From the IMG/VR virus record IMGVR_UViG_3300020578_000058, positions 4,828-68,827 of that record: a stretch of 64,000 nt of DNA; one strand, 5' to 3'. Source of the DNA: a virus. The translations under genes were made by a program, and so were the position numbers. Positions 2,774-24,195 of this stretch are shown here, piece after piece; the first letter of the stretch is position 1, and every line of letters starts with the position of its first letter. Under the pieces are notes generated by a model, which had not been told where the DNA came from, searched no databases, and saw only the letters and a list, made by a program, of their open reading frames with translations.

Positions 2774-4330
2774 ATGCCGCAGCCGCCGTTTCTCATTGAC
2801 CAACTGCAAGTTGAGCCGGGTTCGGGGCAAACGCTCCTTATCAACCGGGACTCGGCCACCGGGTCATTGAAGTTCACCGACGCCGTGGTGACCACCGGGG
2901 CCTTGCTCAAAGACCTATTGAGCCTCAATGGCGTCACGGGCACCTTCATTGTCGGGTCGGGTGGTTCGGGGGCCGACTACACCTCCATTCAAGACGCCCT
3001 CGACGCTATCCCGAACACCTCGTCGCCCTTGGCCCCGTCTCTCGTGCTGGTCCTGCCGGGGGAGTACACCGAGAACTTGACCATTGAGAAGGACGGCGTG
3101 GCGCTCGTTGGCCTCGGCAGCGTCTACTTGCAGAACTCGGGCGCGAGAGACACCGTTACGGTCGTCGCTTCGCCGGGGGCCACGCCCGAGAATGTCGTTT
3201 TGCGCGGGTTGACCATCACCAACAACCAAGTGGGCTACGCCTGCGTGAAGGTGGACGGCGCGTTCACCTTTGCCTCGGCCACGGTGACGGTGAACTCGGC
3301 TCCTCTCGCGGCGGGGGACACCATCGTTATCAACGGGGTCACGCTCACGGCGGTCTGCCCCTCTCGCACTTCGGGCAGCGACGATTTCAGCGTGGCGTTC
3401 TTGACCCCCACCGCTATTGCAGCGGAGATTGAGGCGGCGGTCAACGACCCGGCCAACTCGTTCGCCTCGTTCGTGACGGCGACGGCGGTTGGCCCCGTCG
3501 TCACCCTGTCCGCCAACACGCCGGGCGCGGGCGGGAACGCCTACACGCTTACGGCGACCACGACCCCGGCGGGCGGCTTCACCCTGTCGGGGGCAACCTT
3601 CGCGGGAGGCGGCTCGGCAGGCAGCACCGTCGCTCTTGGGGAGGTGTTGGTCGAGGGTTGTATTCTCGTGGCGAGCGCGGCGGGCGGCTACACCGTTCGC
3701 GGGGACACGGCGAACCACATTCGGGTGCAAGGCGGCACCTGCCGAGGCTCGTCCTCCACGGCGCAAGTCCTTGTGGAGAACTGCGCGGCCCTGCGTATGT
3801 TCGGCGTAGAGCAAGTGCCGAATGTGAGCCTGTCCTACGACACCACGGCTGACCGACCCTCGGACTTGTCTTGCGCGTACCTGCTCTCGGGGTGCGGCGA
3901 AGTTGGGGATGTGCTGTGCGACCTCAACGGGGCGGGTTCGCTCACCCTTGCGAACTGCCCCGTGGTCGGCACGGTCGGGCAGGCGGGCGACCAAGTTCTT
4001 TCGGTGGTGCGGTCCTCTCTTGGGGTACTCACCCTCAATGACACGACGGCGGCGACCCTCTCGCAGTCCACCCGTGGTGCGGTGGCCGCCGACCCCACGG
4101 CTACGCTCGCAGAGACGACCGCTTCGGGCAGCGTGGTCTTTGCTGCTTCTGTAAGCGAGACGGTGAACCTTGACGCCCCCGCCCCCAATGCGAACTACAC
4201 CGTGTTGCTCGACACCGGCAGCACGGCTGAAACCTTCGCCGTGACGGCGCGCACGGCCACCGACTTCACCGTGGACGCCTCCATTGCTGCGACCACGACC
4301 GTTCGGTACACCATTCTTCGGAGCGTGTGA
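2774..4330 (+). CDS. Putative virion structural/fibre protein with beta-helix-type start and a sheath-like insertion module
   Basis: GADYTSIQDALDAI...VLVLPGEYTENLTI is a parallel beta-helix N-cap motif. The protein is Ala/Gly/Thr-rich and carries the 'IAAEIEAAVN...VVTLSA' module. Confidence 0.6.
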   Translation: MPQPPFLIDQLQVEPGSGQTLLINRDSATGSLKFTDAVVTTGALLKDLLSLNGVTGTFIVGSGGSGADYTSIQDALDAIPNTSSPLAPSLVLVLPGEYTENLTIEKDGVALVGLGSVYLQNSGARDTVTVVASPGATPENVVLRGLTITNNQVGYACVKVDGAFTFASATVTVNSAPLAAGDTIVINGVTLTAVCPSRTSGSDDFSVAFLTPTAIAAEIEAAVNDPANSFASFVTATAVGPVVTLSANTPGAGGNAYTLTATTTPAGGFTLSGATFAGGGSAGSTVALGEVLVEGCILVASAAGGYTVRGDTANHIRVQGGTCRGSSSTAQVLVENCAALRMFGVEQVPNVSLSYDTTADRPSDLSCAYLLSGCGEVGDVLCDLNGAGSLTLANCPVVGTVGQAGDQVLSVVRSSLGVLTLNDTTAATLSQSTRGAVAADPTATLAETTASGSVVFAASVSETVNLDAPAPNANYTVLLDTGSTAETFAVTARTATDFTVDASIAATTTVRYTILRSV

Positions 4331-4902
4331 CCATGAGCCAAGACTTTTGGGCTTCCCTGACCGAGAACTCCTCCTCGCAGTTGCTTACGGCTGCTATGGA
4401 CACGCACCTGTCGGGCAAGGCTATTGGCGAGTCCTTTGAGGGCGTTCGTGCTCTCACCGACGCGGGCCGGGCCAAGCAGGCGCTTTCTCTCCCGGTCGAA
4501 GTCGGCACCCGTGTCGCTTTCGTCGGCGGGCTTGGTGCGGTTCTCACCTACGAGAACCCTCCCGAGACGGGCAGCATGGGCAGCGTTGTCCATGTCAAGA
4601 GCGCGGGCGGGAACCTCACCTCGCACGAGGGCAAGGTGTTCGTGTCGTGGGATGACGGGCGGTTCCTTCCCGTCCACGCCGAGCACTTGCGGTTGGCGGG
4701 CCAGCCTGCGGGACGGGTCAAGCGGCAGGCGTCCGTGCGCCGTATTGCCAGCCTCGGAGACTTGACCTCGTTCTTCACCAAGGTCGGCACCGATACGCTC
4801 ATCCACAAGAGCACCCGCGACCTGTGGGCCTTGAAGCAGGACGCCGGGGGCTACCTTATTGAGCGGCTCTTTGACGACAGCGGCGAACCCCTCAAAGGAT
4901 AG
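4327..4902 (+). CDS. Hypothetical protein (SH3-like region, RQAS linker)
   Basis: Clean ORF with GTGA overlap to the upstream gene. Confidence 0.6.
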   Translation: MTMSQDFWASLTENSSSQLLTAAMDTHLSGKAIGESFEGVRALTDAGRAKQALSLPVEVGTRVAFVGGLGAVLTYENPPETGSMGSVVHVKSAGGNLTSHEGKVFVSWDDGRFLPVHAEHLRLAGQPAGRVKRQASVRRIASLGDLTSFFTKVGTDTLIHKSTRDLWALKQDAGGYLIERLFDDSGEPLKG

Positions 4903-4953
4903 CGTGGGGGCGGTAGTCGCCTTATCGCTCGACTTCCCGTAGGAGCGTTCGCC

Positions 4954-5655
4954 TTGTCCGCTGACCCGAACCGCGTACTTGCCGCCTATCTTGCCCGCCC
5001 CCCCAAGGTGGCGGGCGAAGTGCGCTTCGTCAAAGACCGCTCGGGCGACAAGTCCGAGTGGGGTTGGGGGCCTCCCGGCCCTGCCGAGCGGGACATTGAC
5101 GAGCAGTTCGTGTTCAATGCCAAGCACCTCAAACCGCTTGCGCTGACCCTGCGCTCGTCGCTCATGGCTCTCGGTCATGTGGCTTCGGCCTACACGCGCT
5201 TCACGAAGATCAAGTCCTCCAATGTGTCTCCTGACGGGAACCTCGGCGGCAAGGGGTACATTCAGAAGATTGCCGATATGCGGCGGCAGTTGGTGAACTG
5301 CGTAGAGGCGTTGTCGTCGCTCACGGACACCATCTACGACGAACTCAATGCACCGCATTGGAACCCTGCCGAGGACACCATGTCCCCCCGTGACCGGGAT
5401 GAGGTCAAAGAAATCGTCCAAGAGGCCGAGGAAATCAAGGAAGATCCCGAAGCGTGGGCGCAAGAGGAGGAGGACACCACCCTCTCCATGACGACCGGGC
5501 CTCGCAAGACGGCCTCGGGCAAGCAGGCGCAAGTCACGCGCTCGCTGCGGTTCCTCCGCGCAGCAGCCACCAGCGGGCACCTCTCCTCCGAGCAGATGCA
5601 GCGGTTGGCGCATGAACTTGCCCGCATTGAGCAGACCCTCGTGGAGCAACAATGA
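4954..5655 (+). CDS. Hypothetical protein, candidate head/internal protein
   Basis: RBS-like AGGAG upstream, RVLAAY, KVA and KTAS motifs, and an ATGA overlap with the next gene. Confidence 0.6.
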   Translation: MSADPNRVLAAYLARPPKVAGEVRFVKDRSGDKSEWGWGPPGPAERDIDEQFVFNAKHLKPLALTLRSSLMALGHVASAYTRFTKIKSSNVSPDGNLGGKGYIQKIADMRRQLVNCVEALSSLTDTIYDELNAPHWNPAEDTMSPRDRDEVKEIVQEAEEIKEDPEAWAQEEEDTTLSMTTGPRKTASGKQAQVTRSLRFLRAAATSGHLSSEQMQRLAHELARIEQTLVEQQ

Positions 5656-8084
5656 AGAAGAAGCCTGTCATTGCCTCCGTTGAGGTTCTTGGCGAAGCCC
5701 ACCTTCCCGCAGACCTTCTCACGCCCACGATGGGGTCGAACTACGGCCTCGACGGCTACGAGGACATGGACTACGGCTCGGGCGTCATGTACGGCGGGCG
5801 CGGACTTGCGCCCGTGACCCAAGAGGCTCCTGCCACCCCCACGGGCATCAACCGGGGCGCGTCGGAACACCTCGTTTTGGACGACATGCTCAAAGAGGCG
5901 TCGAACCTTGCGGAGCACTCGTGGCTCTCCGAGGCGGTGCAGGACTTGGAGCGGTTGCCCGAGAACCCCGTCCACATTGTCCCCGAGTTGGAAGAACTGT
6001 GGGGGGCCAACCGCCCTACGGACGGCCTTCGGGTCTATGAGCGGGACTTGAAGCAAGCCTCGTTTGAGGAGCAAGACGACGAGCCGACCGTCAAGCACGC
6101 CACCGAGCGCGACCTTGCGGCGTTCGTCGCGCAGGCCATGCGCCGTTCCGCTGCGGGCCACCCGCTCGCGGACATTCTTCGCGCGACCTACCTCGATGTC
6201 GGCAAGCACGACGCTCCCCGTATTCGCGCTGCCATGCAGTTGGTGCAGGCCGAGCACGGCCTTGCCGGGAATGTGTTCGTCCGGCACTCGGCGTACCCGA
6301 AGTACGAGCAGGGCAAGTGGACGGAGCACCTTCGCCGCACGGCCAAGGACGCCCGCTACCTCGTCGTGGCTCCGCAAGTTCTCAAGTCGGCAACATGGGT
6401 GCAGGACGGGCGTTGCACTCTGACCGGGCGGTGTGTGGTCACCGAAGTCCCGTGGCGCGAGGCACACGCCTACTACGCTCCCCGGCTGCGGGACGCAGGG
6501 CGCCGCGTAGCGTCGGGCGACCCCCGCGAGGCGTTGCGGGTCGCGTTCCTGTCTCTCCCCGAGAAGCGGGTGGCGACGGGTGAGAACTTGCCCACGCATG
6601 TCACGCCGTCCGAGCGTGTGTCGAGCGGAGAGGCCCGCACGGCGTTCGCCAACACCAAGGTCGAGCGCAAGGTCTACGACCCTACGCCCGCCCACGACGC
6701 GAGGGTTCGTGCTGCACTTCACCGCAAGTTGGCGAGCATGGCCGAGAACCACCTGCTCGCCCCCGGTGACCGGGACCGGCTTGTGGCGTCCACGGCGCAC
6801 CCGAAGGAAGTGTTGAAGGCTGCTGCGGCGCTCGCGGGAGCCGCGAAGAACGGCACCTATGAGGGTGCCCGCATGGGGGTCTTCGCGGGACTTGCCCGCG
6901 CTGTTCCGGTTGAGCAGGTCGAAGGGGCGTGGCAGGCACGGGAGGGTGCCAAGCAGCGGGCTCGCGTTGCTGCGGCGGTGGAGAAGATCAAGACCTCCAT
7001 CGAGCACGGCATCCGAGGGGGCGCACTCCAACAGGCCATATCTCGCACGGTTCACCCCGAGGACTTCCGGCTTGTAAGTGCCGAAATCTCCCCGCTTCTG
7101 CGGGCGACCAATGCCCTTGCCGAACCCGACCGCACCCCGACCAAGTACGCGGGAGAGCAACTGCGCCCCTTCACGGGCGCGGTGAAGCACACCCCCACCG
7201 AGCAGGTTGCGGGCGCATGGCAGGCGAGCGCACAGACCAAGCAGGCGTCTCGTGTGGCCTCTGCGGTGGAGAAGGTCAAGAAGGCGGTCGAGCACGGCCT
7301 TCGTGGTGCTGCTCTCAAAGAAGTCATCACCCGCACGGTCCACCCCGAAGATGTCCGGCTTGCGGGCCGGGCACTCGACCCGCTCTTGCGGGAGACGAAC
7401 GCGCTTGCCGAGCCTGACCGCACCCCCACCCGGTACTCGGGGGCCAAGTACGCCGCGCATGTGGCAAAGAAGGCTGCGAGCGCGGTTTCCCCGAACACGG
7501 TGCAGTCCGTGGTCGGGTGGGTGCGCCGGGCCATGAACGAGGGCTTTGCAGGCAATGACCTTGACGCGCTCGTGGAGAAGCGGTTCGCCTCCGAGGTGCT
7601 CGCCGCCGCCCGTGAGAACATCACGGCAGCACGGCGCGAGCACGAGGGCGGCGCAGGCTTCCTGTACATTGAGGCGTCGGCCTATGCGACGGCGGACGGC
7701 GTGAAGGGCTGCGAGCAGGGTGCGCTCAAACACCGCGCCAACCAAGTCAAGACGCTGCTTGCCATCCCGAACAAGTGCGGCTCCTGTGTCCACGCCCGCG
7801 CACTTGCGGACGGCACGCAGAAGTGTGCCCTCTACAACAAGGTGCTCGTCGCCCGAGACGACTTCGGTGCGACCCTCGACAACATGAAGCGGGCCAACAT
7901 CCGGTCGGCCAACATGGACGACCAAGAGGCCACCGCTTCGCTTTTCGCTCCGTCCTACGACGAGGGTGAGTTCAACCTGCACAACGCTTCCCTTGACGGC
8001 TTCTCCCTCACCGCGTTCCCCGAGAACGACAAGGTGAACGAGGTCGCCTTCGGCGGGTTGTTCGTCAGCAACCCGTGGGAGTAG
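5652..8084 (+). CDS. Large hypothetical protein with a 96-aa internal duplication and Cys-rich C-terminus
   Basis: 810-aa ORF with KEAS/KQAS/RVAS linkers and CGSC...C motifs near the C-terminus. Confidence 0.7.
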   Translation: MKKKPVIASVEVLGEAHLPADLLTPTMGSNYGLDGYEDMDYGSGVMYGGRGLAPVTQEAPATPTGINRGASEHLVLDDMLKEASNLAEHSWLSEAVQDLERLPENPVHIVPELEELWGANRPTDGLRVYERDLKQASFEEQDDEPTVKHATERDLAAFVAQAMRRSAAGHPLADILRATYLDVGKHDAPRIRAAMQLVQAEHGLAGNVFVRHSAYPKYEQGKWTEHLRRTAKDARYLVVAPQVLKSATWVQDGRCTLTGRCVVTEVPWREAHAYYAPRLRDAGRRVASGDPREALRVAFLSLPEKRVATGENLPTHVTPSERVSSGEARTAFANTKVERKVYDPTPAHDARVRAALHRKLASMAENHLLAPGDRDRLVASTAHPKEVLKAAAALAGAAKNGTYEGARMGVFAGLARAVPVEQVEGAWQAREGAKQRARVAAAVEKIKTSIEHGIRGGALQQAISRTVHPEDFRLVSAEISPLLRATNALAEPDRTPTKYAGEQLRPFTGAVKHTPTEQVAGAWQASAQTKQASRVASAVEKVKKAVEHGLRGAALKEVITRTVHPEDVRLAGRALDPLLRETNALAEPDRTPTRYSGAKYAAHVAKKAASAVSPNTVQSVVGWVRRAMNEGFAGNDLDALVEKRFASEVLAAARENITAARREHEGGAGFLYIEASAYATADGVKGCEQGALKHRANQVKTLLAIPNKCGSCVHARALADGTQKCALYNKVLVARDDFGATLDNMKRANIRSANMDDQEATASLFAPSYDEGEFNLHNASLDGFSLTAFPENDKVNEVAFGGLFVSNPWE
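6912..7445 (+). repeat. Intragenic tandem duplication, ~288-bp period
   Basis: EQVEGAWQA...RTVHPED...NALAEPDRTPTKY (from 6912) matches EQVAGAWQA...RTVHPED...NALAEPDRTPTRY (from 7200). Confidence 0.85.
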
Positions 8085-8086
8085 TC

Positions 8087-8965
8087 ATGCCTTCGCCCTC
8101 CACTCAACAGTCCGAGGTCGTTGCCATGCGCTTGCAGGGCATTCTTTCGGTGCTGCGGGCGCAGTATATGTCCTACCAAACCTCGCATTGGCAGGCGCGT
8201 GGGCAGGCGTACTACGGGAACCACCTCCTGTTCCAACGGCTCTACGAATCGGTGCAGGCCGAAGTAGACGCCGTGGCCGAGAAGGCGGTTGGCTACCTCG
8301 GTGCCGACGCCGTAGAACTCGTCCCGCAAGTCGAACTCGTGTTCTCGTGGGTGTCCCGGTGGTCGAAGGTGTCCGACCACCACATGCGGGGCTTGCAGTC
8401 CGAGCGTGATGTGCAGGCAGTTCTGCAAGCCGCCTACGACGCCATCAAGGCGGCTCGGGCCATGACCCTCGGCCTCGATGATTGGATCATGGCGACGGCG
8501 AACGCCCACGACACGAACGCCTACCTGCTCCAACAGGTCGTGCAGGCCCCTGCGGGGCGCGTGGCCTCCCTCGTCAACAAGCGGTTCGCTGCGCCGTCCG
8601 ACTCGGGGGCGCCGTCTGCCGAGGGCGCGTTTCGCAACATGAACCCCAAGTTCCACGAGACGCGGCAGTTCGCGGAGACGGGGGCCATCACCAACAGCAA
8701 GACCGTCGCGCAGAAGGCTGCACCCATCCTCGACATCTCCAAGTCCGAGGCGAAGGAGGGCGTCAACCAAACGCCTCCTACCACCAAGGAAATCTTGCAA
8801 GAGCCGGGCGGCAAGACGCTTTCCACGCTGAACCGCGCTCTCTACGACACCGTGGACCCGAAGGTGGAGAAGGACAAGGGCAGGCGCGCGAAGGGGGCGA
8901 CCCTTGCGGCTTGGACCTACCTCACCCCCGAGGGCGGGTGGACGCTTGCCCGTAGGAGCGAGTGA
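8087..8965 (+). CDS. Dps/ferritin-like protein with C-terminal extension
   Basis: HWQARGQAYYGNHLLFQRLYE...VDAVAEK matches the Dps pattern HW...H..F..LY......D..AE. The second half follows an RVAS linker. Confidence 0.75.
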   Translation: MPSPSTQQSEVVAMRLQGILSVLRAQYMSYQTSHWQARGQAYYGNHLLFQRLYESVQAEVDAVAEKAVGYLGADAVELVPQVELVFSWVSRWSKVSDHHMRGLQSERDVQAVLQAAYDAIKAARAMTLGLDDWIMATANAHDTNAYLLQQVVQAPAGRVASLVNKRFAAPSDSGAPSAEGAFRNMNPKFHETRQFAETGAITNSKTVAQKAAPILDISKSEAKEGVNQTPPTTKEILQEPGGKTLSTLNRALYDTVDPKVEKDKGRRAKGATLAAWTYLTPEGGWTLARRSE

Positions 8966-9543: not shown

Positions 9544-9582
9544 GGCGGCGGTAAGGTGGGGGCACAACGGTAGAGGTGCCTC

Positions 9583-10260
9583 ATGACGGCAGAAGAACGC
9601 GCCCAACTACTCGCCATGTTGCCCCAAGGCATTTCCCGCGTTCGTGTCACGAACGCGGAGGGCAAGCAGTACTACAAGGCAGTTCCAGACATTCTTGACA
9701 CCGACACGGTGGACCTGACCGCTGCGGGTAAGCCTATTGTCATGCGGGCACCTCCCGGTCGCCCGGTCGGCTCCACCGCGAAGCCTGCGTTGCCCCCGGT
9801 GTCGAAGCAGGCCGAAGAAGTCTCGCAGGCGAAGGACAACCACGAGGCCCTTTCGGACCTCGTGGCCGTCACGAAGCAGAACTCCGAGGCTGACGCGGTG
9901 TTCCACACGCTCATGAACGGGCTTGCGGTGGAAATCACCTCTTTGGAGTTTGAGCGCCGGGAAGCCGAGCGCAAGGGCGAGGACACCTCCAACATCTCGT
10001 CCAAGCGCGTCCGCGCTATCAAGACCATGACCGACGCATGGTTGAAGAAGCGGGAGAAGGTGGACTCGGGCACCATTGACATGGAAGGGGTGGCCTTCAA
10101 GACGCTGTTCTCGTTCACCCTTGAAACGGTGCGCGCGGCTATGGGCGATAGCGGTATGCGCCCCGAGCACATCGAGACGGTCTTTGCGAAACTCTCCAAG
10201 CGGCTTGCGGACGGGTGGGCCGAGGACGCCAAGGCCCGTATGCGTGAGGCAACGAAGTGA
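9583..10260 (+). CDS. Putative terminase small subunit
   Basis: Helical protein directly upstream of and overlapping the large terminase. Call is based on position. Confidence 0.45.
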   Translation: MTAEERAQLLAMLPQGISRVRVTNAEGKQYYKAVPDILDTDTVDLTAAGKPIVMRAPPGRPVGSTAKPALPPVSKQAEEVSQAKDNHEALSDLVAVTKQNSEADAVFHTLMNGLAVEITSLEFERREAERKGEDTSNISSKRVRAIKTMTDAWLKKREKVDSGTIDMEGVAFKTLFSFTLETVRAAMGDSGMRPEHIETVFAKLSKRLADGWAEDAKARMREATK

Positions 10261-13058: not shown

Positions 13059-13379
13059 ATGCCGCGCCCCACAACCCTCGACCCCGCCGAAGTAGACCGC
13101 ATGGTGGAGCGGCAGGTGCGCTCTGCGGCGCAAGCCGTGGCATCGGCGTTGCGGGCGGTAGAGCAGACGCACACTCCCCGTTCTCGGCGGGTGGCGCGGC
13201 ACCTTGCAGGCGTGCTGCGAATGCTCCAAGACACGGGCAGGGTCACCTCACCCTTCGACCCCGTGGACGAGCCCTCCACAGGTCGGGCGGCAAAGGTCGC
13301 CGCCCCACTCCCCGAGCCCCCTCCTCCCGTCGAACCTCCTGCACCCCCGGCAACAGAAGTAGAGGCACCCGATGCGTGA
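13059..13379 (+). CDS. Hypothetical protein (Pro-rich tail)
   Basis: GAGG upstream; overlaps the portal start. Confidence 0.55.
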   Translation: MPRPTTLDPAEVDRMVERQVRSAAQAVASALRAVEQTHTPRSRRVARHLAGVLRMLQDTGRVTSPFDPVDEPSTGRAAKVAAPLPEPPPPVEPPAPPATEVEAPDA

Positions 13380-15075
13380 GCAAGACGACGCTACGCCGGT
13401 CGGGCATGTTCCCTCGGGTGACGGCAAGTCCAAGGCCAAGACGGGCAAGCCCCGCAAGGTCGCCACGACGGCCATGCGCTCCAAGTTCGCCTCCATCGGA
13501 GGGGGTTTGGGCGGTGCGGGCACCGTGCAGGGCATGGGCGGCAACTTCTACTCGCCCGAACTCTCAACCGACTTCCTTGAACTCCCGCAAAGCCTTCACG
13601 AACAATGGAACTACTATCGGTTCTTCTACCGTTCCGAGCCGTTCGTCGGGCAGGCCATTGATCTCCACACCGAACTCCCGCTCTCCAAGATCCGCATTGC
13701 TCGCCCGAAGGCCAAGAATGTGGAACTCGCACAGGAGGCCACGCGCTTCTGCGAGCGGTGGGCGCAGCGCATTGGGCTGCTCCACCGGCTCATCGCCATC
13801 GTCCACGAACGCAACCTCATTGGCGAGGTGTTCATTTGGTGCGAGGACGCCAACCCCGACATGCCCCGCGAGGTGCGCGAAGAAGTCCTGCGTGAACTGA
13901 ACGAGGACGGCGAAGCCGTTGAGCGGTGGGTGGTTCGGGACGACGCCGACGAGCGCGCCGCCCGGTGGCTGCGGAAGAACTACAAGGGGTGGACGGGCGT
14001 GCGGTGCTTGCCCCCCGAACAGGTGCGCGTCGAGTCGTTCAACTTCACCGACGAACGCATCTTTGAGTTGATCCCCGACAGCAAGACCAAGAGCATTATT
14101 GAGAAGTCCGACTCGGGGGACGCGAACGCGCAGCGCGTGGTGGCGTCCATGCCACCGGATGTGGTGGCGGCGGTGCGTAACGGCGCGAACATTCCGTTGA
14201 ACACCGACCCCGACGCGGGCTCCTTCGTCTACTACATGGCGAACCGCAAGTCGGACTACGAGCAGCGTGGGCGCAGCATTCTTGAACGCTGTATGCGCGT
14301 CTTGGTGTACCGGGACAAGTTGCGGCAGGCGCAGACAAGCATCGCTTCGCGGCACATGACCCCCATTCGGCTCGTGTACGCCGAGGACATGGATCAAGCC
14401 GATGTGGAGGCGTTGCGTGAGCAGGTAGACCTTGCCCTGCAAGACCCCGACTACTCCATCATTGCGAACTTCCAAGTGAACTGGGAAGAAATGGGGGCCG
14501 ACCAACGGCTTCTCGATCTTGGGACCGAGTACGACATGACCGACCGGCAGTTGTACGCGGGCTTGGGCGTGACGGAGGGCTTGCTCTCGGGCGAGAGCGC
14601 CTACTCGGGCGACCGCATCAACTTGGAGGTCATCAACACGCGCTACATGCTGCTGCGGGAGCAGGTGCAAGACCTCGCGGAGAACGCCTTCTTCCGGCCC
14701 ATGTGTGCGCGCATGGGCTTTGTGGAGGAGGACGAGTACGGCGAAATGCAAGTTCTTGTGCCGCGCTTGTCGTTCACGCGGCTTGCGCTCCGCGACAACT
14801 CCGACACCTTCGACGCCCTCTACAACCTCTACACGAAGGGGTCGCTCGATGTGGACACCATCCTTGAACTTCTGAACCTTGACCCTATTGCGGTCAGGGA
14901 GAAGGTCGAGCGTGACCTGTTCACGGTCAATGACCCGACCTTCAATGAAGTCATGCGGGGCATCTACGGAGACGCGGGCCGCAAGTTGGCCGAGGAGAGC
15001 GATGTTGTCACCAAGATCGCCAAGGGTCTTGGCCTCAAACACACGCCCCCCAAGGAGGGGGGCGACCGCTTTTAG
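13372..15075 (+). CDS. Portal protein
   Basis: 567 aa downstream of terL. YRFFYRSEPFVGQAIDLH, GEVF, RGRSILERC and LYAGLGVTEGLL are typical of portal proteins. Confidence 0.85.
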   Translation: MREQDDATPVGHVPSGDGKSKAKTGKPRKVATTAMRSKFASIGGGLGGAGTVQGMGGNFYSPELSTDFLELPQSLHEQWNYYRFFYRSEPFVGQAIDLHTELPLSKIRIARPKAKNVELAQEATRFCERWAQRIGLLHRLIAIVHERNLIGEVFIWCEDANPDMPREVREEVLRELNEDGEAVERWVVRDDADERAARWLRKNYKGWTGVRCLPPEQVRVESFNFTDERIFELIPDSKTKSIIEKSDSGDANAQRVVASMPPDVVAAVRNGANIPLNTDPDAGSFVYYMANRKSDYEQRGRSILERCMRVLVYRDKLRQAQTSIASRHMTPIRLVYAEDMDQADVEALREQVDLALQDPDYSIIANFQVNWEEMGADQRLLDLGTEYDMTDRQLYAGLGVTEGLLSGESAYSGDRINLEVINTRYMLLREQVQDLAENAFFRPMCARMGFVEEDEYGEMQVLVPRLSFTRLALRDNSDTFDALYNLYTKGSLDVDTILELLNLDPIAVREKVERDLFTVNDPTFNEVMRGIYGDAGRKLAEESDVVTKIAKGLGLKHTPPKEGGDRF

Positions 15076-15515: not shown

Positions 15516-15556
15516 GCGGTGCTCCTTGCCTGTGAAACAGGACGGGCGGGGTGAGA

Positions 15557-15590
15557 GGGGTACGCGGCACCGGGCTACCGCGAAACCCCC
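15557..15590 (-). promoter_or_regulatory. Conserved phage promoter-like motif, copy 1
   Basis: Minus strand reads GGGGG TTTCGC-N17-TACCCC. Confidence 0.7.
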
Positions 15591-16009
15591 TCCACGAACG
15601 AAATGTCGAGGGTCCACTCATGCCGGGACCGCTCCTCCCATTCAGCCCGCGCCCGGTCAAGGTAGTCGGCGCACTCCTGCTCCGACCAACCGTTCACTTT
15701 GCGGAGGTGCTTGACGGCTTGCGGACCACGCCCAACGGCGAACGCCCGCCCAATGTGCTTGACCTCGTGGCAGGACGGGCAGAGGGCCACGAGCCCCACG
15801 AGCCGTTGGACCCGTGTGGTGTCGTCGTACTCCCACCGCTCGTGCGCCTCGACGGGCCACTTGCGGCCCTTGCCGCCGCAGACCTCGCACCTGTGCCCTG
15901 CCGCCTCGTAGCAGGCACGGCGCAGCCTGTCCCACTCCGAGGGGCGCAACCGCGAGCGTAGGTTGTCGCCCCATTGGCTCGCGGGCACGAGGTCTACTGT
16001 GAGCCTCAT
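15575..16009 (-). CDS. HNH-like endonuclease
   Basis: WDRLRRACY...CEVCG...EAHERW...LVALCPSCHEVKH. GGAGG RBS. Confidence 0.8.
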   Translation of the reverse strand: MRLTVDLVPASQWGDNLRSRLRPSEWDRLRRACYEAAGHRCEVCGGKGRKWPVEAHERWEYDDTTRVQRLVGLVALCPSCHEVKHIGRAFAVGRGPQAVKHLRKVNGWSEQECADYLDRARAEWEERSRHEWTLDISFVEGVSR

Positions 16010-16029: not shown

Positions 16030-16063
16030 AATGTACGCAGCACCCTTGTCCCCCGAAACCCCC
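16030..16063 (-). promoter_or_regulatory. Conserved phage promoter-like motif, copy 2
   Basis: Minus strand reads GGGGG TTTCGG-N17-TACATT. Confidence 0.65.
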
Positions 16064-16131
16064 TCCTGCATGAAAAGTTCGGGGGCGGTGACGAGCCTAT
16101 GCACCGTCCCGAAGCAAGGTGAACCACGCCC

Positions 16132-19100
16132 ATGCTCCGTCGCCACGCTGCCACACCCAAGAAGTACGAGCACATCGACTTCACCCCGCCCGAGGGTGCG
16201 GCCAATGCTGCTGCGAAGGGCTTGGAGTACCGTGAGAAGGCCAGCCCTTCCAACAAGGGCGGGCTTACGCCTGCCGAGGCGAGCAAAGAGGGCATTGGTT
16301 CGGGCGTGCAGCGTGCGGTGAACTTGAAGAACCGCAACACGCTCTCACCCGACACCATCAAGCAGATGCACGGCTTCTTCTCGCGCCACGAGAAGAACAA
16401 AGGTGTGGCCCCCGAACACAAGTCCGAGCCGTGGAACGACAAAGGGCATGTGGCGTGGCTTCTGTGGGGGGGAGACGCAGCAAGGTCGTGGGTCGATAAG
16501 GTTCTCGGGCAAATGGAGAAGGCCGACGAGAGAGAGGCCGTGAAAAAGGCTGCTCGGTTCCTCGCTTCCGGCCCGTCCCTGTCATTGGACGACCTCGGCT
16601 ACGGGAGCCTCACGACGGACGAGGAAGCCTTGTTGCTCACCCCCTCGGCTGCGTTCCCGGCGAATGTGCTTGCGTTCATTCCGCAGGTGCCTTGCCCCGA
16701 GAACTCGTCTTTGGAGACGCGGCGGGAACTTGCCCACTTGCTTCGGTTGCAGCACGAGGCCCGGCCCTACCTCGCACAGCAGGTAGCCGCGACCGACGAG
16801 AACGCTACGGCCACCTTGGAGGCGTACTGCGCCGAGCACGGGTTGGACGCAAGCGGTGTGCTCCCCATCACGAACGCTGCCCGCCCGGTGATCCTGCAAG
16901 TCAAGCGGCTCTATAACCGCCCGCGCCCGTACCAACTGGCCGAGTTCTTGGAGCCGGGGTTCCGCCCCATGTCGTCCACGACGGCCCACACGCCGTCGTA
17001 TCCGAGCGGTCATTCGGCGCAGGCGGTGCTTGTCGCGCTGCTCCTGTCGGGGCTTTACCCCGAGCACCGGGACGCTTTCATGGCTCTCGCCCAAGAAGTC
17101 GGCACACACCGCATGGTCGGCGGCTATCACTTCCTTTCGGACATTACCTACGGCGAGCAAGTCGGGCGGGTGCTCTACGAAAGCATGGCCCGCGCCTCGG
17201 TGCGTACCGCTGCCGCCAAGTACGCTGCCGCCAAGTACGCTGCCGCCAAGTACGCTGCCGCCAAGTACAAGGAAAAGAAGAAGGTTCCCAAGGCGGACGG
17301 GTCGGGCAAGACGACCGTGTATGTCTACTCCGAGCGGCAGGTGGCGAACCGTCACCGGGAGAAGGCCGAGCGGTTGGAGGACTTCAAGCCCGCTCTCGCG
17401 GAACTTCGCGCACAGGTCAAGAAAGACCTCGACGCGAATGACCCGAAGAAGAACTTGGTCGCCCTCGCCGTGGGCCTCATTGACGCGACTTACGAGCGGG
17501 TCGGCAACGAGGACAGCGCCGACAATGGGCACTACGGGGTCACGGGGTGGCTCCGCAAGCATGTGACCTTCAAGGGCAAGCGTGCCGTCATTCGCTATGT
17601 GGGCAAGTCGGGCGTCAAGCACGAGAAGTCGGTGGACGACGAGGCTCTTGTCGGCGCATTGAAGAAATGCTGCGGAGACAAGGACGGGGACGAGGCCGTG
17701 CTCTCCCTTGGCAAGCACACCGTCACCTCCGATGAGGTGAACAAGTACCTCAAACCCTACGGCATCACCGCCAAGGACTTGCGGGGGCTGCACGCCAACC
17801 GGGAGATGCAGGAGCGCCTGCGCGCTATCCGCAGCAAGGGGCCGAAACTGCCCCGGCTTCGGAAGGAGCGCGACCCCATTCTCAAAGAGGAGTTCCAGAA
17901 GGCGTTGGAGGGTGCCGCCGAAGCCGTGGGGCATGAGCCTGCGACCTTGCGGAAGCAGTACCTCGTCCCCGGCATCGAAGAAGCCTACATGAAGGACGGC
18001 ACGGTGACCCGCGACCTCACGGCGAGTACCCGTGTCGCCGCCCTCTACTTGCGGGCGACCAAGACCGACGCCGAGCGCGAGGACGAGGAGGCCGAGCGGC
18101 TGCTCAAACCCGAGCCGAAGTACAAGCCACCTCGGAACGACTTGCGCCGTCGCCGTGTCGAGACGGAGCAGGACGCCGACCCCGACAAGAAGCAAGACGA
18201 CAAGGACAGGTCGCAGAACTACAAGGACGCTGCTCACCGAGCGTTGGTGCAGCGCGTGGCCGCACGCTTCTTGTTTGCGAAGTCCGGTCCCGGTGGGAGT
18301 GCTACCAACACCTTGCAGGAGCGCGCACAGAAGGAGTTCGACGCCTACGAGAAGGAACACCCCGACACCGAACTCAAGGTCGAGGACTTCGTAGAGCGCA
18401 TCCAGAAGCAGCAGCAGGGGTCCAGCGGTGGGGCTCCACTCAATGAGAAGGCCCAAGCCGCCCAACAGAAAGCGGAGTTGGCAGCGTTAGAGGTCAAGCG
18501 AAAGTCCGAGGGTGTGCAAAAGGCCGTGGACAAGGTTTCGGCTATGTGGAAGGACATGCCGAACCTTCCCGGCATGTCCAAGCAGAACCACGAGCGCATC
18601 AAAGAAGCCGTCTCGTCCTTTGGCCCCAAGCAGCGCGAGGAGTTCCTTGCCGCCTTTGAGACAGAGAAGGACGCCCTCGTAGGCAAGTACGCCGGGGACA
18701 AGAGCGAGTACGACCCGGCGTTTGTCGAAGAAGCCCTGCAAAGCATGGAGAACACCCCGAAGGGCAAAGACCCCAAGGCCGTGGGAAAGAAAGCCATGCA
18801 GGCCATCTTCACCGACCGTGTGCTGCTCAACCCGCTTATGCTCACACCCTCGGATCCCTTGTCAGACAACCCTGACAAGGGAGACGAGCGACACCCCCCT
18901 GCCAAGGCAGCGAAGCGGGTGGGCCAAGCCGTCAAGCGGTTCTCCCGCGCTTCCAAGGCCGAAGTGGACGCCATGAGCGGCAGGCTCAAGTCTGCCCTCA
19001 AAGCGTGTGAGCCCGGCTCCCCCCAACACGAGGAGTTGCTTGCCATGCAGTATGGCATGGCGGTGGCCGCTGCCATGCCCAAGGCGAAACCCAAGGGCAG

Positions 19101-19803: not shown

Positions 19804-19881
19804 ATGGTAAGCCCCCTTGCGCTCCGCATTCGGGCGGGGCAGTTTCACTCCCATTCCCTCCGAAACCGCAGGAGTTCTCCA

Positions 19882-20550
19882 ATGGCCCGTCTCACCCGCC
19901 AAGGGGCGCGCAACCTCACCGCAGCCCTCGACAACATCGCCCAAGTCGTCCAGCAGCGCGCCGCGTTGCTCGGCCTCGACACGCGCACGGCTACCGACTT
20001 CGCGTACCGTTGCGACCTCTTGTCGGACGCTATTGAGCGCACCGCTTCCGCGAACTTCCCGCTCTCCCGGCAGGCCACAGACGCCTATGGCAAGGGCAGC
20101 GACGACGAGGGCATGAGCGTCGAGCACGGCGAGGGTGGGTTCGACCCGAACTTGATTGGGGACGAGGTTCCCGGCCCGTTGGAGATCATCGAGCCCCCGA
20201 GCGAGCCGTGGATGGACGGGCACTTCACGCAGGAGAAGTACCACGTCCTCGGTGAGTTGCAGGAGGCGGGCGAACTCGGCCCCGTTCACCTCGCTTCGCT
20301 TCTGACCAAGGCTGCGGGCATCATCCTCGCGCAAGAGAGCGACAAGGAGGAGCAGGAGGAGGAGCAGCAGGAGGTCAAGAAGTCGGCCAAGAAGGGCCAG
20401 CAGAAGGGCAAAGTTCCTCCGCAGTTCCTTGAGCAGCAGAAGAAGAACAAGGGTGAGGAGCAGCAGGCCGAGAAGGAGGAGCAGCAGGAGAAGGGCGCCA
20501 AGAAGAAGGCGTCGGCTGCGAATGATTGGGGCTTCAACCTCACCCGCTGA
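19882..20550 (+). CDS. Head/scaffold-associated hypothetical protein (E/Q/K-rich)
   Basis: AGGAG RBS. The low-complexity EEQQ/KKGQQK segments are shared with the scaffold ORF. Confidence 0.65.
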   Translation: MARLTRQGARNLTAALDNIAQVVQQRAALLGLDTRTATDFAYRCDLLSDAIERTASANFPLSRQATDAYGKGSDDEGMSVEHGEGGFDPNLIGDEVPGPLEIIEPPSEPWMDGHFTQEKYHVLGELQEAGELGPVHLASLLTKAAGIILAQESDKEEQEEEQQEVKKSAKKGQQKGKVPPQFLEQQKKNKGEEQQAEKEEQQEKGAKKKASAANDWGFNLTR

Positions 20551-20573
20551 ACCTCTTGCTGCGAGGCGAGCCC

Positions 20574-21140
20574 GTGAGCCGCACCCACCGCACCGCACAG
20601 AACTATGTCAACTACCAAGAACGGGCTTCCGAGTTCGCGGTAGGTGATGTAGTCGTTCCCTTCGGCTATTGGCCGGGGGTGTCGGGCCGTATTGTGGCCT
20701 TGTGGCCCGCTATCGGCATGGCCGATGTGCAGTTCACGGGCGGGACAAAGCGGTATCCCGTCGAAGAACTGCAACGCATTGACGCTGATGGCAATGCCAA
20801 CCCCCCGCGCACCGATAGCGTGCCGGGGGGCAAGGGCACGGTGCCGGTTCCCACGACATCGCCCCCGCAGCGGGACGACATTGACGCGCTCGCCACGCGG
20901 GTCGCGCACGGCTTCGTGCGGAACGCGCTCTACTGGTCGGCGCCGGGGCGCAAGTACCGCTTGACCCGCTCCGAACAAGACGCAGGCTGCTACAACTGCC
21001 CGAAGTGTGACGACTCCCCCTTGCGCCGCACCGTGTACAAGCGCATGAACGGGGTGAGCGAGCGGTTGCTCGGCTGTCCCGCCTGTCTCTTTCTCATCAA
21101 GGAAGGGGACATTCTCGGGCACGACCGCGAGGGTGGGTGA
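20574..21140 (+). CDS. Hypothetical protein: SH3-like domain + zinc ribbon
   Basis: FAVGDVV...GRIVALW...VQF, followed by CPKC...CPAC. Confidence 0.6.
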   Translation: MSRTHRTAQNYVNYQERASEFAVGDVVVPFGYWPGVSGRIVALWPAIGMADVQFTGGTKRYPVEELQRIDADGNANPPRTDSVPGGKGTVPVPTTSPPQRDDIDALATRVAHGFVRNALYWSAPGRKYRLTRSEQDAGCYNCPKCDDSPLRRTVYKRMNGVSERLLGCPACLFLIKEGDILGHDREGG

Positions 21141-21143
21141 CGC

Positions 21144-22619
21144 ATGGCTTTCATGAAGTACGCTCGCGCGCAGGTCATGCACCCCCGCATCACGGGGGCC
21201 GCGTGGCAGGGCATCCGTAAGCAGGCGTCGTCTGCCCCCACGGCGTCAAAGAACCTCGTGGCGCAAGCAGGCGAGATCCTCGGGGAGACTTTCTCCCCTG
21301 AGCGGTACTTGTTGACACACTGTTCGATTGTGGCAAGCGTCGATGTGGATACGGTGCCGAATGTGAAGTTGGGCACCGAGAAGGTCGGCTCCCGCACCGT
21401 CACGCGGAAGTGGGCCGACTACTACATCAAGCCAGAGTGCGCGCAGTTTGTGAACAACAACGGCGACTCGTGGTCCCGCGAAGTGCTCATGAAGTCGTTC
21501 CGCACCTTCATTGGGGCGCACAACTTCTTGGAGCATGTGCAAATCGAGGAGCAGTCGAAGGGCCGCATCATTGACGCCGTGGCCCGCAACATTGGCCCTT
21601 CGGTCTATGTGGACATTCTCGTGGCGACCGACCGCAAGCACGCCCAACTCGTGCAGGACATTGAGAGCGGTAAGATGAGCACGCTCTCGATGGGCTGCTC
21701 CTGCGAGTTCACGCTTTGCTCTCAATGCGGGAATGTCGCGGTGGACGAGACGGACCTTTGCGAGCATGTGAAGTACTCCAAACTCAACACCTTCTTCGAT
21801 GCCCGTGGGCAGCGGCGGGTCATTGCAGAACTGTGTGGGCACTCCTCTCACGGGGAAACGGGTGGGGTTCAATTCATTGAGGCGTCTTGGGTCGCCGTTC
21901 CGGCCTTCGCAGGCGCGGTCATGCGGAACATCCTTGACCCCGGTTCCGTCTCGCCCGAGAAGGCCAAGCATTTCTCCGAGGTGCTATCGGCACCTCCTGC
22001 CGAGTGGGGCACCAACATCCTCCGCGCTGCGTCCGAGCACCGCACGGCGCAGCAGTTCGACTTCGGGGACGAGGGTGGCGACGAGGGTGGTGAAGGGGAG
22101 GGGGACACCAAACCCCCCGAGAAACCTTCCAGCCCTTTCGCGGACATGGAGGACGAACTCTACACGGCGGTCAAGAACCGCGTGAAAGAGCGGTTGGAGA
22201 AGGAACTGCGTGAGCAGAATGTCGAGAAGGCTCTCGACACCCCGACCGCCCCGAACGAGAGCGTCATCAAGGAAGCGGCTATAACCAAGGCCGCTGTGCA
22301 GAAGTTCGCCCGTGAAGCCCATGCCAAGAGCGTTGACACGCTTCTTCGGGTAGCATCCTCGGACGCTGCTTTCGTGGACGGGCTTGTGGAAATCGACCGT
22401 TCTTTTGGACTTCGCGTTCCACAGTCTGTCTATCGCACGGCCCTTACGGTAGGTGCGACCACGAACTACCTTTCTCCTGACGACTACTTCTGCGCCTGTC
22501 ATAAGCAAGCGCGGAGGGTGCTCTCCCCTTCCGAACTTCGGGTCGCATACCGAATCGGCAACCTGCTCACCCGAAAGGGGAGCATTCACCCCCGCAACCG
22601 AGGACACAACCATGCGTGA
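21144..22619 (+). CDS. Prohead (capsid maturation) protease with zinc-ribbon insertion
   Basis: NNNGDSW, FLEH, KGRIIDA, LSMGC...CSQC...CEH and FIEASWVAVPA follow the HK97/assemblin-fold protease pattern. Located before the scaffold and MCP. Confidence 0.8.
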   Translation: MAFMKYARAQVMHPRITGAAWQGIRKQASSAPTASKNLVAQAGEILGETFSPERYLLTHCSIVASVDVDTVPNVKLGTEKVGSRTVTRKWADYYIKPECAQFVNNNGDSWSREVLMKSFRTFIGAHNFLEHVQIEEQSKGRIIDAVARNIGPSVYVDILVATDRKHAQLVQDIESGKMSTLSMGCSCEFTLCSQCGNVAVDETDLCEHVKYSKLNTFFDARGQRRVIAELCGHSSHGETGGVQFIEASWVAVPAFAGAVMRNILDPGSVSPEKAKHFSEVLSAPPAEWGTNILRAASEHRTAQQFDFGDEGGDEGGEGEGDTKPPEKPSSPFADMEDELYTAVKNRVKERLEKELREQNVEKALDTPTAPNESVIKEAAITKAAVQKFAREAHAKSVDTLLRVASSDAAFVDGLVEIDRSFGLRVPQSVYRTALTVGATTNYLSPDDYFCACHKQARRVLSPSELRVAYRIGNLLTRKGSIHPRNRGHNHA

Positions 22620-24195
22620 GCGTCTGACTTGGAAGCGCGGCGGGGCTCTCAATGCTCCCCCGCGCCGTGCTTCTGCCCACCCCGCCTACCCCGACGAGGG
22701 TGCCGCCTCCCCGGCTTACCAGCCCGACCCCGAGGCCGACGCCTACGAGAACGGCAATCCTTCTGCGTGGGCCGAAGACCCGAACCCCGGCCCGTACCCG
22801 CAGTCGGCGCACCCCTCGTACCCCGACGAGGGGCCTGCCTCTCCCGCCTACATCGCCAAGCAGGGCAGCGTTGCCCTCGCCTTGGAGCGCAAGGCCGCCA
22901 AGTGCGTTCGCCTCGCTTCGGCCATGCTCGGGCCGACCGCTTCGCAGCACGAAGTCGAGAGCCAAGCGTTCGCGTTCATGGACATGAGCGAGCGCGCCCT
23001 CCAAGCCTCCCTCTCCCGTCTCGCGCAGCAGGACGAGGAGGAGCAGCAGGACGCCGAGGAGCAGCAGGCCGAGGAGCAGGCCAAGAAGGCCGCCCTCCGT
23101 CGCCGCGCGCAGCAGGCCAAGAAGGACGCCGAGGAGCAGCAGGCCGAGGAGCAGCAGGCCGAGGAGCAGCAGGAGGTCAAGGGTGGCAAGAAGGCCGCTC
23201 TCGCCAAGGCTGCTTACTTGCGCCGCCTCGCGCAGCAGATTGAGGAAGAAGTCGAGGAGGAGGTCGAGGACGACGACTCCGACGAGGACGAGGACGAGGC
23301 GCAGCAGGAGAAGGGAGCCAAGAAGGCTTCCGTTCTTGACGCCCGCCTTGCCCGCATCGAGCGCCTCCTGACCGCTGGCGTTCCCGGCATGTTCATGCAG
23401 CACAACATGGCGCAGCAGAAGTCTCCCGAGGAGGCCATGTTTGAGGCCATGCAGGACGAGGCCATGCAGGACGAGGCGCAGTCCTTGGAGGAGATGCTCT
23501 TGGAGGAGATGCAGGACGAGGCGCAGCAGGACGAGGCGCAGCAGGACGAGGCGCAGTCCTTGGAGGAGATGCTCTTGGAGGAGATGCAGGACGAGGCGCA
23601 GCAGGCCCCCAAGCCCTTCGGCATGATGGCCGAGCAACTTGCCATGCAGGGCGACAACGCTGGCCCGATGGTCGAGTCCATGCGGCACAACATGGCGCAG
23701 CAGGCTCCCATTGAGGCGCAGTTGGCCGAGATGCTCCAAGAGGAGGGCATGGCCGGTGTGCTTGGTGCCGAGTACGCGGACGAAGCCGAAGCCATGCTCG
23801 TTGACCCGAGCGGCGACGACTACATCGGCGCAGACGGGATGCTCGTTGACCCGAGCGGGGACAACTACGACGACGGCATGGTGGCCGACCCGATGGGCCT
23901 CATGGGTGACGGCGGCAACGAGGACGACGCCATTCTTGCGTCCCTCTTTGGTGGCGAGGCCATGAAGTACGCCAAGAAGGGTCAGCAGGGCCATGCCGAC
24001 GCCGAGGCGCAGGAGGAGGAGCAGGAAGCCGACGAGCCCAAGAAGGGCCAGCAGAAGGCCGCTGCCCTTCGCCCGCAGCCCCGCAAGGCGTCCACGGGTG
24101 CCACCCGCCTCGGGGGCATCACGAAGGAGGCTGCCGAGGTTGGCGACCTGTCGAAGTTGTGGGAGTCGGCCCCCGATGTGAGCAAGTACTTCTAA
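22612..24195 (+). CDS. Capsid scaffolding protein (very acidic, repetitive)
   Basis: GAGGA RBS, E/Q/D/M-rich repeats, many K/R-x-A linkers, and position between the protease and capsid genes. Confidence 0.7.
   Translation: MRERLTWKRGGALNAPPRRASAHPAYPDEGAASPAYQPDPEADAYENGNPSAWAEDPNPGPYPQSAHPSYPDEGPASPAYIAKQGSVALALERKAAKCVRLASAMLGPTASQHEVESQAFAFMDMSERALQASLSRLAQQDEEEQQDAEEQQAEEQAKKAALRRRAQQAKKDAEEQQAEEQQAEEQQEVKGGKKAALAKAAYLRRLAQQIEEEVEEEVEDDDSDEDEDEAQQEKGAKKASVLDARLARIERLLTAGVPGMFMQHNMAQQKSPEEAMFEAMQDEAMQDEAQSLEEMLLEEMQDEAQQDEAQQDEAQSLEEMLLEEMQDEAQQAPKPFGMMAEQLAMQGDNAGPMVESMRHNMAQQAPIEAQLAEMLQEEGMAGVLGAEYADEAEAMLVDPSGDDYIGADGMLVDPSGDNYDDGMVADPMGLMGDGGNEDDAILASLFGGEAMKYAKKGQQGHADAEAQEEEQEADEPKKGQQKAAALRPQPRKASTGATRLGGITKEAAEVGDLSKLWESAPDVSKYF
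23452..23604 (+). repeat. Intragenic repeats encoding QDEA(Q/M) units and QDEAQSLEEMLLEEM twice
   Basis: CAGGACGAGGCGCAGTCCTTGGAGGAGATGCTCTTGGAGGAGATG occurs twice. Confidence 0.9.

Follow-up and report, generated by a model that had tools for sequence, protein, structure and literature searches.

What does the prohead protease of an uncultured giant phage cut, and by what rule does it choose its sites? The question is raised by a 64,000-nucleotide (nt) stretch of the IMG/VR virus record IMGVR_UViG_3300020578_000058 (positions 4,828 to 68,827 of that record), called the window here. A preliminary description of the window had proposed that open reading frame (ORF) 21144 encodes a head protease that cleaves after Ala at K/R-x-A linkers followed by Ser or Ala, which recur in many head proteins. 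Our analysis points the same way. The pattern [KR]-x-A|[S/A/G], where the bar marks the bond, is probably the cleavage signal of ORF 21144, and some of its copies are probably counterparts of the sites used for release and maturation in herpesviruses. The strongest evidence for this reading is the conservation of site positions among relatives.

The window has a GC content of 64%, is coding almost wholly on the plus strand, and is part of a 68.8-kb record. It represents the head module of a giant phage, uncultured and belonging to the phage G lineage; PHROGs and Pfam searches place the module at 4327-27508 (Table 1). The genes follow the order portal, a protein of 1223 amino acids (aa), two small ORFs, protease, scaffold, a decoration-like protein, and the major capsid protein (MCP). 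This order is common to the window, the 485-kb uncultured phage LR745208.1 (MCP 85% and protease 42% identical to the window), Tunturiibacter phage Tunturi_5 (49% and 38%), and Bacillus phage G (40% and 36%). Cluster C mycobacteriophages and BcepSaruman are more distant relatives.

ORF 21144 is a prohead serine protease that is predicted to have the fold of herpesvirus assemblin and T4 gp21. A PHROGs search matched it to phrog_18299, 'head maturation protease', and its position in the head module beside the scaffold and MCP genes is the gene context expected of MEROPS clan SH. The protease domain covers residues ~40-290 and is followed by a C-terminal extension of ~195 residues. The AF2 model has a predicted local distance difference test (pLDDT) score of 83.4 with a core above 90. 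VIA-align matched the model to the varicella-zoster virus (VZV) protease 1vzv (Z 10.2, root-mean-square deviation 2.4, 111 aligned residues), T4 gp21 5jbl_C (Z 9.6, root-mean-square deviation 3.0, 127 aligned residues), and the proteases of pseudorabies virus (Z 9.5) and herpes simplex virus 2 (Z 8.4). The best 36 structural matches are herpesvirus proteases or T4 gp21 without exception. These matches, to proteases with the beta-barrel common to herpesvirus proteases and T4 gp21, bear out the earlier proposal that ORF 21144 shares the assemblin/gp21 fold. The best Foldseek match is also 5jbl, and it is weak (E = 4.6e-3). A PDB sequence search with the protease profile returned low-complexity matches to the extension only and none in the protease domain, 5jbl included, and no NCBIfam family matched ORF 21144.

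The protease has 1828 detectable relatives, and 66 intein-free sequences (the window's own and 65 relatives) were aligned. The Ser of the LSMG block, which had been singled out beforehand as the catalytic residue, is invariant in 66/66 sequences, and the equally invariant His131 is the candidate catalytic His. The two residues are spaced by 51 positions; the expectation for clan SH is ~50-70 plus a third His or Asp. Cys192, Cys195, Cys206, and Cys231 (21717-21839) form an invariant, zinc-ribbon-like Cys4 insert right after the Ser block. An insert of this kind is not known from T4 gp21 or the assemblins. Among the protease relatives, inteins (with Hint, Intein_splicing, and LAGLIDADG domains) are frequent and sit next to conserved blocks of the active site, such as immediately behind LSMG|C; one is found in L007:7908-10703, two in L009:8001-12425, and three Hint stretches each in P0127 and P0176. 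The window's own protease has none.

Every tetrapeptide listed in the preliminary description was located in the window proteins. The scaffold holds RRAS18, KKAA158, KKAA193, KKAS237, RKAS491, and KEAA505, together with the previously unlisted RKAA93, RLAS100, and KAAA482. The protease holds KQAS26, RAAS294, RTAQ299, KEAA376, and RVAS402. RQAS and RIAS occur in ORF 4327, KTAS and RAAA in ORF 4954, RVAS and RFAA in ORF 8087, and RTAS and KKAS in ORF 19882; ORF 5652 has KEAS, KQAS, and RVAS among a total of 15 [KR]xA[SA] copies. The starts previously assigned to ORFs 8087 and 19882 match those of their orthologues. The scaffold start is the ATG at 22612 behind GAGGA and not the GTG at 22453. A minus-strand ORF that overlies the scaffold (22567-24393) was rejected on the basis of GC content at third codon positions (0.87 for the scaffold versus 0.74) and the existence of scaffold homologues.

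Motif numbers were compared with 1000 within-protein shuffles per protein. The scaffold has 9 [KR]xA[SA] copies against 1.8 expected and ORF 5652 has 15 against 3.4, numbers reached in 0/1000 shuffles in both cases, and the protease has 4 against 1.1 (P = 0.015). The small ORFs taken singly show no significant excess (P = 0.04 to 0.25), as in ORF 8087 with 2 copies against 0.96 expected. The whole window also beats its shuffles (96 observed, 44 expected), which makes the shuffles a weak null, and directional controls were therefore used. The mirror motif [SA]Ax[KR] matches it in composition and is a better control than shuffling. The seven head-module ORFs pooled contain 36 forward and 6 mirror copies, of which 15 and 3 are in the protease, scaffold, and ORF 19882 and 21 and 3 in ORFs 4327-8965. 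The other 50 ORFs of the window contain 49 and 31. The enrichment in head over other ORFs that had been predicted was borne out, with [KR]xA[SA] at 13.0 versus 3.3 copies per 1000 aa (Fisher P = 3.3e-9) and [KR]xAS at 6.6-fold the density of the rest (P = 1.1e-8). ORF 15121 was excluded from the forward/mirror sets; ORFs 42130, 43259, and 49287 were kept in the rest, and this contrast is conservative because the rest includes non-coding-looking frames and two N-terminally tagged proteins. Clearly non-head proteins (sheath, large terminase (TerL), dNK, dCMP deaminase, and sigma factor) have 3 copies in 2980 aa.

Pattern scans that were not biased toward the motif covered nine head-module proteins. 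KxA ranks first of 380 a-x-b patterns (68 versus 36.3 expected, P = 1.8e-6) and RxA fourth. RxAS is third and KxAS sixth of 2685 a-x-bc patterns, with only scaffold acidic repeats ahead of RxAS, and both are the most widespread patterns of their type, each in 6/9 proteins. The Glu-type motifs AxE (46 versus 50.0 expected), SxE (25 versus 24.3), and GxE (20 versus 28.4) are not enriched in these proteins, nor are the herpes-type VxA and LxA; LxE is weakly enriched (45 versus 32.9, rank 15). Family-level scans were dominated by single conserved columns and were unused as evidence. The 37 motif sites use five codons at the first position, all four Ala codons, and both Ser codon families. This variety places the signal at the protein level and rules out a DNA-level motif.

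An explanation from composition or helix periodicity in the Ala/Lys-rich proteins of a 64% GC genome could draw on the 12% Ala content and on the window-wide excess over shuffles. We consider it barely credible. It is already contradicted by the enrichment, density, and pattern scans; mirror and permuted motifs are not enriched; the positions are conserved while the middle residue is free; phage G proteins, with 6-8% Ala, keep the protease and portal sites; and BcepSaruman gp084, with 14.4% Ala, has no copy.

Sites in the scaffold, protease, and portal are conserved among relatives at 35-50% identity, with K/R and Ala fixed and the residue between them free. The directional excess extends to these families. 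There are 248 forward and 79 mirror copies in the 65 protease relatives and 1205 and 275 in 120 of the 292 scaffold relatives found. The residue after Ala is S in 52%, A in 33%, and G in 13% of 1065 sites, and hydrophobic residues two positions before the K/R are about twice as frequent as background (39% versus 20%, 53% versus 30%, and 45% versus 27%).

The protease carries copies near its own domain ends. KQAS at the N-terminus is a candidate self-cleavage site, and RAAS at the end of the protease domain is the candidate analogue of the herpesvirus release site; the counterpart of the latter is KVAS in Tunturi_5 and, in phage G gp19, KIAS. Residues 29-35 and 292-300, which adjoin these candidate sites, are the only stretches of the model, internal or terminal, that fall below pLDDT 50. 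Two further copies lie in the extension. The KEAA column is occupied in only 17/66 of the larger alignment, where the region is poorly aligned.

Scaffolds carry about ten motif copies each, at non-homologous positions. In seven scaffold orthologues, the acidic middle is unalignable, yet the N-terminal site, the sites in a helical block, the pre-tail sites, and the tail persist. Conservation was measured in 104 relatives, the set that remained after removal of 16 close relatives of the window (P0004-P0019). Ala20 and Ser21 of the N-terminal site are each at least 90% conserved. RKAA93 and RLAS100 lie inside the conserved helical block and may be structural. The KKA[AS] copies in the acidic repeats have analogues in relatives L007 and L001. 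The last 80 residues contain at least two sites in 102/104 relatives and exactly three in 74. An alignment that was not conditioned on the motif has K/R at the three C-terminal sites in 91, 104, and 97 and Ala in 85, 86, and 94 of the 104 sequences, with a freely varying middle residue. In the seven orthologues, the three pre-tail sites directly precede the invariant tail DLSKLWESAPDVSKYF. The tail is presumed to be the shell-binding (MCP-binding) peptide. Complex prediction with scaffold residues 470-527 and MCP gave scores of 0.40, 0.00, and 0.00, which speak neither for nor against binding.

Sites also occur in other head-module proteins. The portal has KFAS at residues 38-41 (nt 13483-13494), in front of the conserved core, and K-x-A is aligned in 4/4 portals, phage G included. 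ORF 19882 has RTAS at nt 20038-20049, where 7/8 orthologues have [KR]xA[SGV], and KKAS at nt 20503-20514 just before the conserved C-terminal tail NDWGFNLTR, where 6/8 have [KR]xAS. MCP has KLAA at residues 24-27 (nt 25227-25238), found in 7/8 aligned MCPs and not in phage G; this region is conserved as a whole, so the conservation of KLAA says little. The 86 distant relatives of ORF 5652 contain 826 forward and 308 mirror copies, and [KR]xAS outnumbers SAx[KR] by 386 to 45. In the AF2 model of ORF 5652, the N-terminal 140 residues are disordered. PHROGs gave no family for this protein, nor did Pfam at E <= 0.01; NCBIfam gave one chance-level match (E = 0.006, 16.7 bits versus a cut-off of 334), the ESM Atlas no lead, and Foldseek no match of the model at E <= 0.001. 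The search for relatives in annotated phages gave none, apart from LR745208.1, which is itself unannotated. ORFs 4327-4902 and 4954-5655 likewise have no family in the PHROGs or Pfam searches. The domain of ORF 8087 matched DUF5856/Ferritin and NCBIfam Dps, all below cut-off, and the gene is just upstream of the terminase genes. Going by motif density and position upstream of the terminase gene, ORFs 4327, 4954, 5652, and 8087 may encode head proteins.

The 1223-aa protein contains a PAP2 phosphatase domain (residues 257-345) and a eukaryotic-type topoisomerase IB core (residues 406-608). The linker between them reads RTAA-A-(KYAAA)x3 (nt 17203-17259), which is suggestive, and RVAA (residue 634) follows the topoisomerase IB domain. 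The protein is possibly an enzyme polyprotein that is packaged or ejected. Relatives measure 1429-2094 aa. Two proteins encoded at a distance from the head genes, ORF 44930 (44930-46009) and ORF 60227 (60227-61402), have N-terminal L-(L/I)-R-x-A-S tags. The tag of ORF 44930 is MSDTVLRQRLIRVAS, provided that the real start is Met76, and that of ORF 60227 is ...ADLLRYAS...LSRIAAG. These tags are possible propeptides of packaged cargo.

The motif was followed into phages with related proteases. In Tunturi_5, forward to mirror counts are 9:1 in scaffold gp332 and 14:6 in ejection protein gp328, and three tail proteins totalling 2327 aa have no copy. The Myrna counts are 9:3 in gp97 and 10:2 in gp96. 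BcepSaruman, which is more distant, has 0 forward copies in the protease and in its 14.4%-Ala neighbour gp084. The homologues of ORF 21144 in phage G (gp19), Tunturi_5 (gp331), and Myrna (gp97) are 36-38% identical in the first two and 26% in the last. All three stand in the same order of portal, scaffold-position protein, decoration protein, and MCP genes and keep [KR]xA[SA] after the protease domain, as ORF 21144 does. The phage G and Tunturi_5 proteases are without the long C-terminal extension, and the Myrna protease is fused into a 1211-aa protein, compared to 491 aa for ORF 21144. Myrna gp97 (L011 7103-10738) is annotated as a tape measure and starts with a protease domain (LDSVSMG...); its C-terminus resembles a scaffold tail, with KVAS, RTAS, and RVAA in front of it. 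On this sequence evidence, the tape-measure annotation looks wrong.

The motif follows the protease clade across Acidobacteriota, Lysinibacillus, and Mycobacterium hosts, which bears on the idea that a host enzyme or an unrecognised phage protease, and not ORF 21144, cuts at the motif. The link between enzyme and motif is a proposed one, and the 68.8-kb record is part of a much larger genome that may encode other proteases elsewhere. Tracking of the clade across these hosts, absence of the motif beside the more distant BcepSaruman protease, and copies at the domain boundaries of the ORF 21144 protease itself all argue for ORF 21144, and we regard another enzyme as very improbable.

Several observations weigh against cleavage by ORF 21144 at the motif. 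ORF 21144 matches no Pfam family at E <= 0.01 and no protease family there, and none of the candidates for the third catalytic residue (Asp201, His208, and His233) is invariant. The phage G scaffold-position protein gp21 has no copy (0:2), and the 1223-aa protein has no directional excess (9 forward, 8 mirror). In ORF 5652, segments with pLDDT <50 account for 28% of the protein and contain 6/15 copies, against ~4.2 expected; this is about chance and means that not all copies need be cut. Its best-conserved copy, RVAS285, lies in a confident loop of the model. Neither the PHROGs and Pfam searches of ORFs 4327, 4954, 5652, and 8087 nor the homology and fold searches of ORF 5652 gave evidence of a virion location. 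The portions of the literature searched contain no mature termini, peptides, or protease assays for this phage or its relatives. Finally, the whole C-terminal stretch of the scaffold (RPQP, LGG, and the tail) is conserved, and binding, not cutting, could account for the conservation of its sites.

This last point also speaks for a docking or targeting signal that stays uncut and brings proteins into the prohead, for example by contact with shell, portal, or protease. Several copies lie in predicted helices, and the tags on ORFs 44930 and 60227, far from the head genes, would suit such a signal too. Ten copies per scaffold at non-homologous positions and copies at the protease's own domain ends are a better fit to a degradation signal, and docking without cutting seems to us unlikely, though it is the most plausible of the alternatives. 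Targeting and cleavage coincide in the T4 capsid-targeting sequences, according to the part of PMC5694885 available to us, so docking may be complementary to cleavage. Every computational test that was able to refute the cleavage reading came out in its favour.

The register of the putative cut was assigned by analogy. In the available portions of PMC5694885 and PMC10052503, characterised relatives follow a P3-x-P1| rule, with A-X-E| in SPN3US and cleavage after Glu in phiKZ, 201phi2-1, and T4. Mapping K/R-x-A-S on P3-P2-P1-P1' gives a free second position and a small fourth one, and the scissile bond would follow Ala (Ala|Ser). The motif might instead be a recognition signal with the cut at another bond, for example after Lys/Arg. 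The K/R is as invariant as the Ala, and the register cannot be read from sequence; in HK97, the capsid protein is cleaved after a Lys. Proteases of this fold, as far as the cited portions describe them, have P3 and P1 fixed and P2 free, which matches K/R-x-A as P3-P2-P1, and the small residue after Ala fits the Ser or Thr at herpesvirus P1'. We judge a cut at another bond improbable, less so than cutting by another enzyme.

These considerations suggest how the system might work. In the assembled prohead, the protease would recognise [K/R]-x-A with a small residue behind it (S > A > G) and frequently a hydrophobic P5, and would cut after Ala. One self-cleavage would fall close to the N-terminus (KQA|S) and a second where the catalytic domain ends (RAA|S); the second would free the protease from its C-terminal extension, as at the herpesvirus release site. 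The scaffold would be cut near its N-terminus, in its acidic middle, and at the three sites shortly before the invariant tail. The pre-tail cuts would uncouple the scaffold from the shell, as at the herpesvirus maturation site, and the fragments would leave. The portal N-terminus and ORF 19882 would probably be trimmed, and ORFs 4327-8965 and the PAP2-topoisomerase IB protein are probably processed too.

Two known systems provide the comparison. ORF 21144 has the fold of the herpesvirus assemblins, which process their scaffold (pUL26/pUL26.5; MEROPS S21). According to the available portion of PMC4498786, pseudorabies virus has a YLQA|T release site and a VQA|S maturation site, and cutting at the maturation site frees the herpesvirus scaffold from the capsid protein. 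The preliminary description had called the specificity of ORF 21144 assemblin-like. The part that stands is P1 and P1', where Ala and then Ser are proposed here as in herpesviruses; P3 is Lys/Arg in the window and V/L/I or Q-type in herpesviruses, so the likeness is confined to P1/P1'. The release site is paralleled by one site at the protease-domain end before the extension, and the maturation site, as the same portion describes it, by scaffold sites ~20-45 residues from the C-terminus, ahead of the conserved tail. In herpesviruses the protease is fused in frame to the scaffold, whose gene is nested within that of the protease, whereas the window scaffold has a separate gene; the protease extension shows no BLASTP similarity to the scaffold (E = 2.8), so the nested arrangement is not found here. 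The window system also differs in its bacterial host, in having many more sites per substrate, in the Cys4 insert after the catalytic Ser, and in the lack of a Pfam S21 match.

T4 gp21, phiKZ gp175, and SPN3US gp245 (MEROPS S77 and S80) also have the fold of ORF 21144 and, like it, are prohead proteases of large myoviruses, and the literature portions consulted describe cleavage of self, scaffold, portal, and internal proteins at many P3-x-P1 copies, as is proposed here. Their specificity differs: T4 gp21 and phiKZ gp175 cut at (L/I or S/A/G)-x-E|, and in the window KxA is the top pattern instead. The distinction that had been drawn between Glu-cutting phage enzymes and Ala|Ser-cutting herpesvirus ones agrees with these passages. 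The portions of the literature searched, including those of PMC12484599, PMC6690015, PMC5646251, PMC10052503, PMC5694885, and PMC4498786, report no Ala-specific phage prohead protease, and they give no cleavage specificity for the proteases of phage G-like phages, Tunturi, or cluster C mycobacteriophages.

Table 1. Features of the window. Positions are those of the 64,000-nt stretch; fractions refer to aligned relatives or orthologues.
Feature	Position	Strand	Evidence or conservation
ORFs 4327-4902 and 4954-5655, candidate substrates	4327..5655	+	syntenic orthologues in LR745208.1
810-aa protein ORF 5652, 15 motif copies, candidate substrate	5652..8084	+	
Dps/ferritin-like protein, RVAS and RFAA right after the ferritin-like domain	8087..8965	+	
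Large terminase (TerL)	10257-12179		
Portal protein	13372..15075	+	phrog_16240 E = 7.7e-31
PAP2 and topoisomerase IB protein, 1223 aa	16132..19803	+	PF01569 and PF01028
222-aa protein, ORF 19882	19882..20550	+	
Prohead (head maturation) serine protease, ORF 21144, 491 aa	21144..22619	+	phrog_18299 E = 1.4e-14
KQAS, residues 26-29, candidate N-terminal self-cleavage site	21219..21230	+	motif at column in 34/66
His131 (FLEH), candidate catalytic His	21534..21536	+	invariant in 66/66
Ser182 (LSMG), candidate catalytic Ser	21687..21689	+	S182, M183, and G184 invariant in 66/66
RAAS, residues 294-297, protease-domain end, candidate release-site analogue	22023..22034	+	motif at column in 48/66
KEAA, residues 376-379, extension	22269..22280	+	in 6/7 full-length orthologues, a conserved PN[DE] block is followed by K[EQ]A[AST]
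RVAS, residues 402-405, extension	22347..22358	+	RVAS or RTAA in 5/7 orthologues; 23/66 in larger alignment
Scaffolding protein, 527 aa, acidic low-complexity middle	22612..24195	+	292 relatives
RRAS, residues 18-21, scaffold N-terminal site	22663..22674	+	site within first 50 aa in 92/104
RKAA (residue 93) and RLAS (residue 100), scaffold	22888..22920	+	[RK]KAA in 5/7 and R[LI]AS in 5/7 orthologues
KKAA (residue 158), KKAA (residue 193), and KKAS (residue 237), scaffold acidic repeats	23083..23331	+	kept in close relatives
KAAA (residue 482), RKAS (residue 491), and KEAA (residue 505), candidate maturation-site analogues	24055..24135	+	
Scaffold C-terminal tail EVGDLSKLWESAPDVSKYF	24136..24192	+	L, W, P, and F invariant in 104/104
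Major capsid protein (MCP), 291 aa, HK97-fold	25158..26033	+	phrog_2522 E = 4.7e-53

A 204-aa protein encoded just upstream of the protease gene (20526-21140) is conserved and was found in 8/8 relatives compared; it contains two CxxC pairs and lacks the motif. The open frames at 15121-15714, 42130-42735, 43259-44245, and 49287-49589 have Arg/Ser/Pro/Thr-rich translations and are probably not genes. Long non-coding frames of this kind arise from the high GC content of the window.

The scope of the rule may be wider than the window. It is possible, although we lean slightly toward doubt, that the whole protease clade of 1828 relatives has the K/R-x-A|S code together with the herpesvirus release and maturation logic and a tag for cargo enzymes. 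Such a tag would mark proteins for both head entry and processing, and the candidates are the PAP2-topoisomerase IB polyprotein, the Dps-like protein, and the N-terminally tagged proteins.

The phage proteases of the assemblin/gp21 fold with measured specificity all cut after Glu in the available portions of PMC5694885 and PMC10052503. If the cleavage reading is true, basic-x-Ala|Ser would be a second specificity class among them. Phage and herpesvirus capsid maturation would then be tied by substrate logic beyond the fold, and Ala cutting with scaffold uncoupling by tail clipping would be shared by both and not a herpesvirus peculiarity. Mature virion proteins, propeptides, and packaged cargo of the many uncultured phage G-like megaphages would become predictable from sequence by a simple rule, and annotations such as the 'tape measure' of Myrna, which begins with a protease domain, would be corrected. 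The existence of cultured relatives makes the K/R-x-A rule directly testable.

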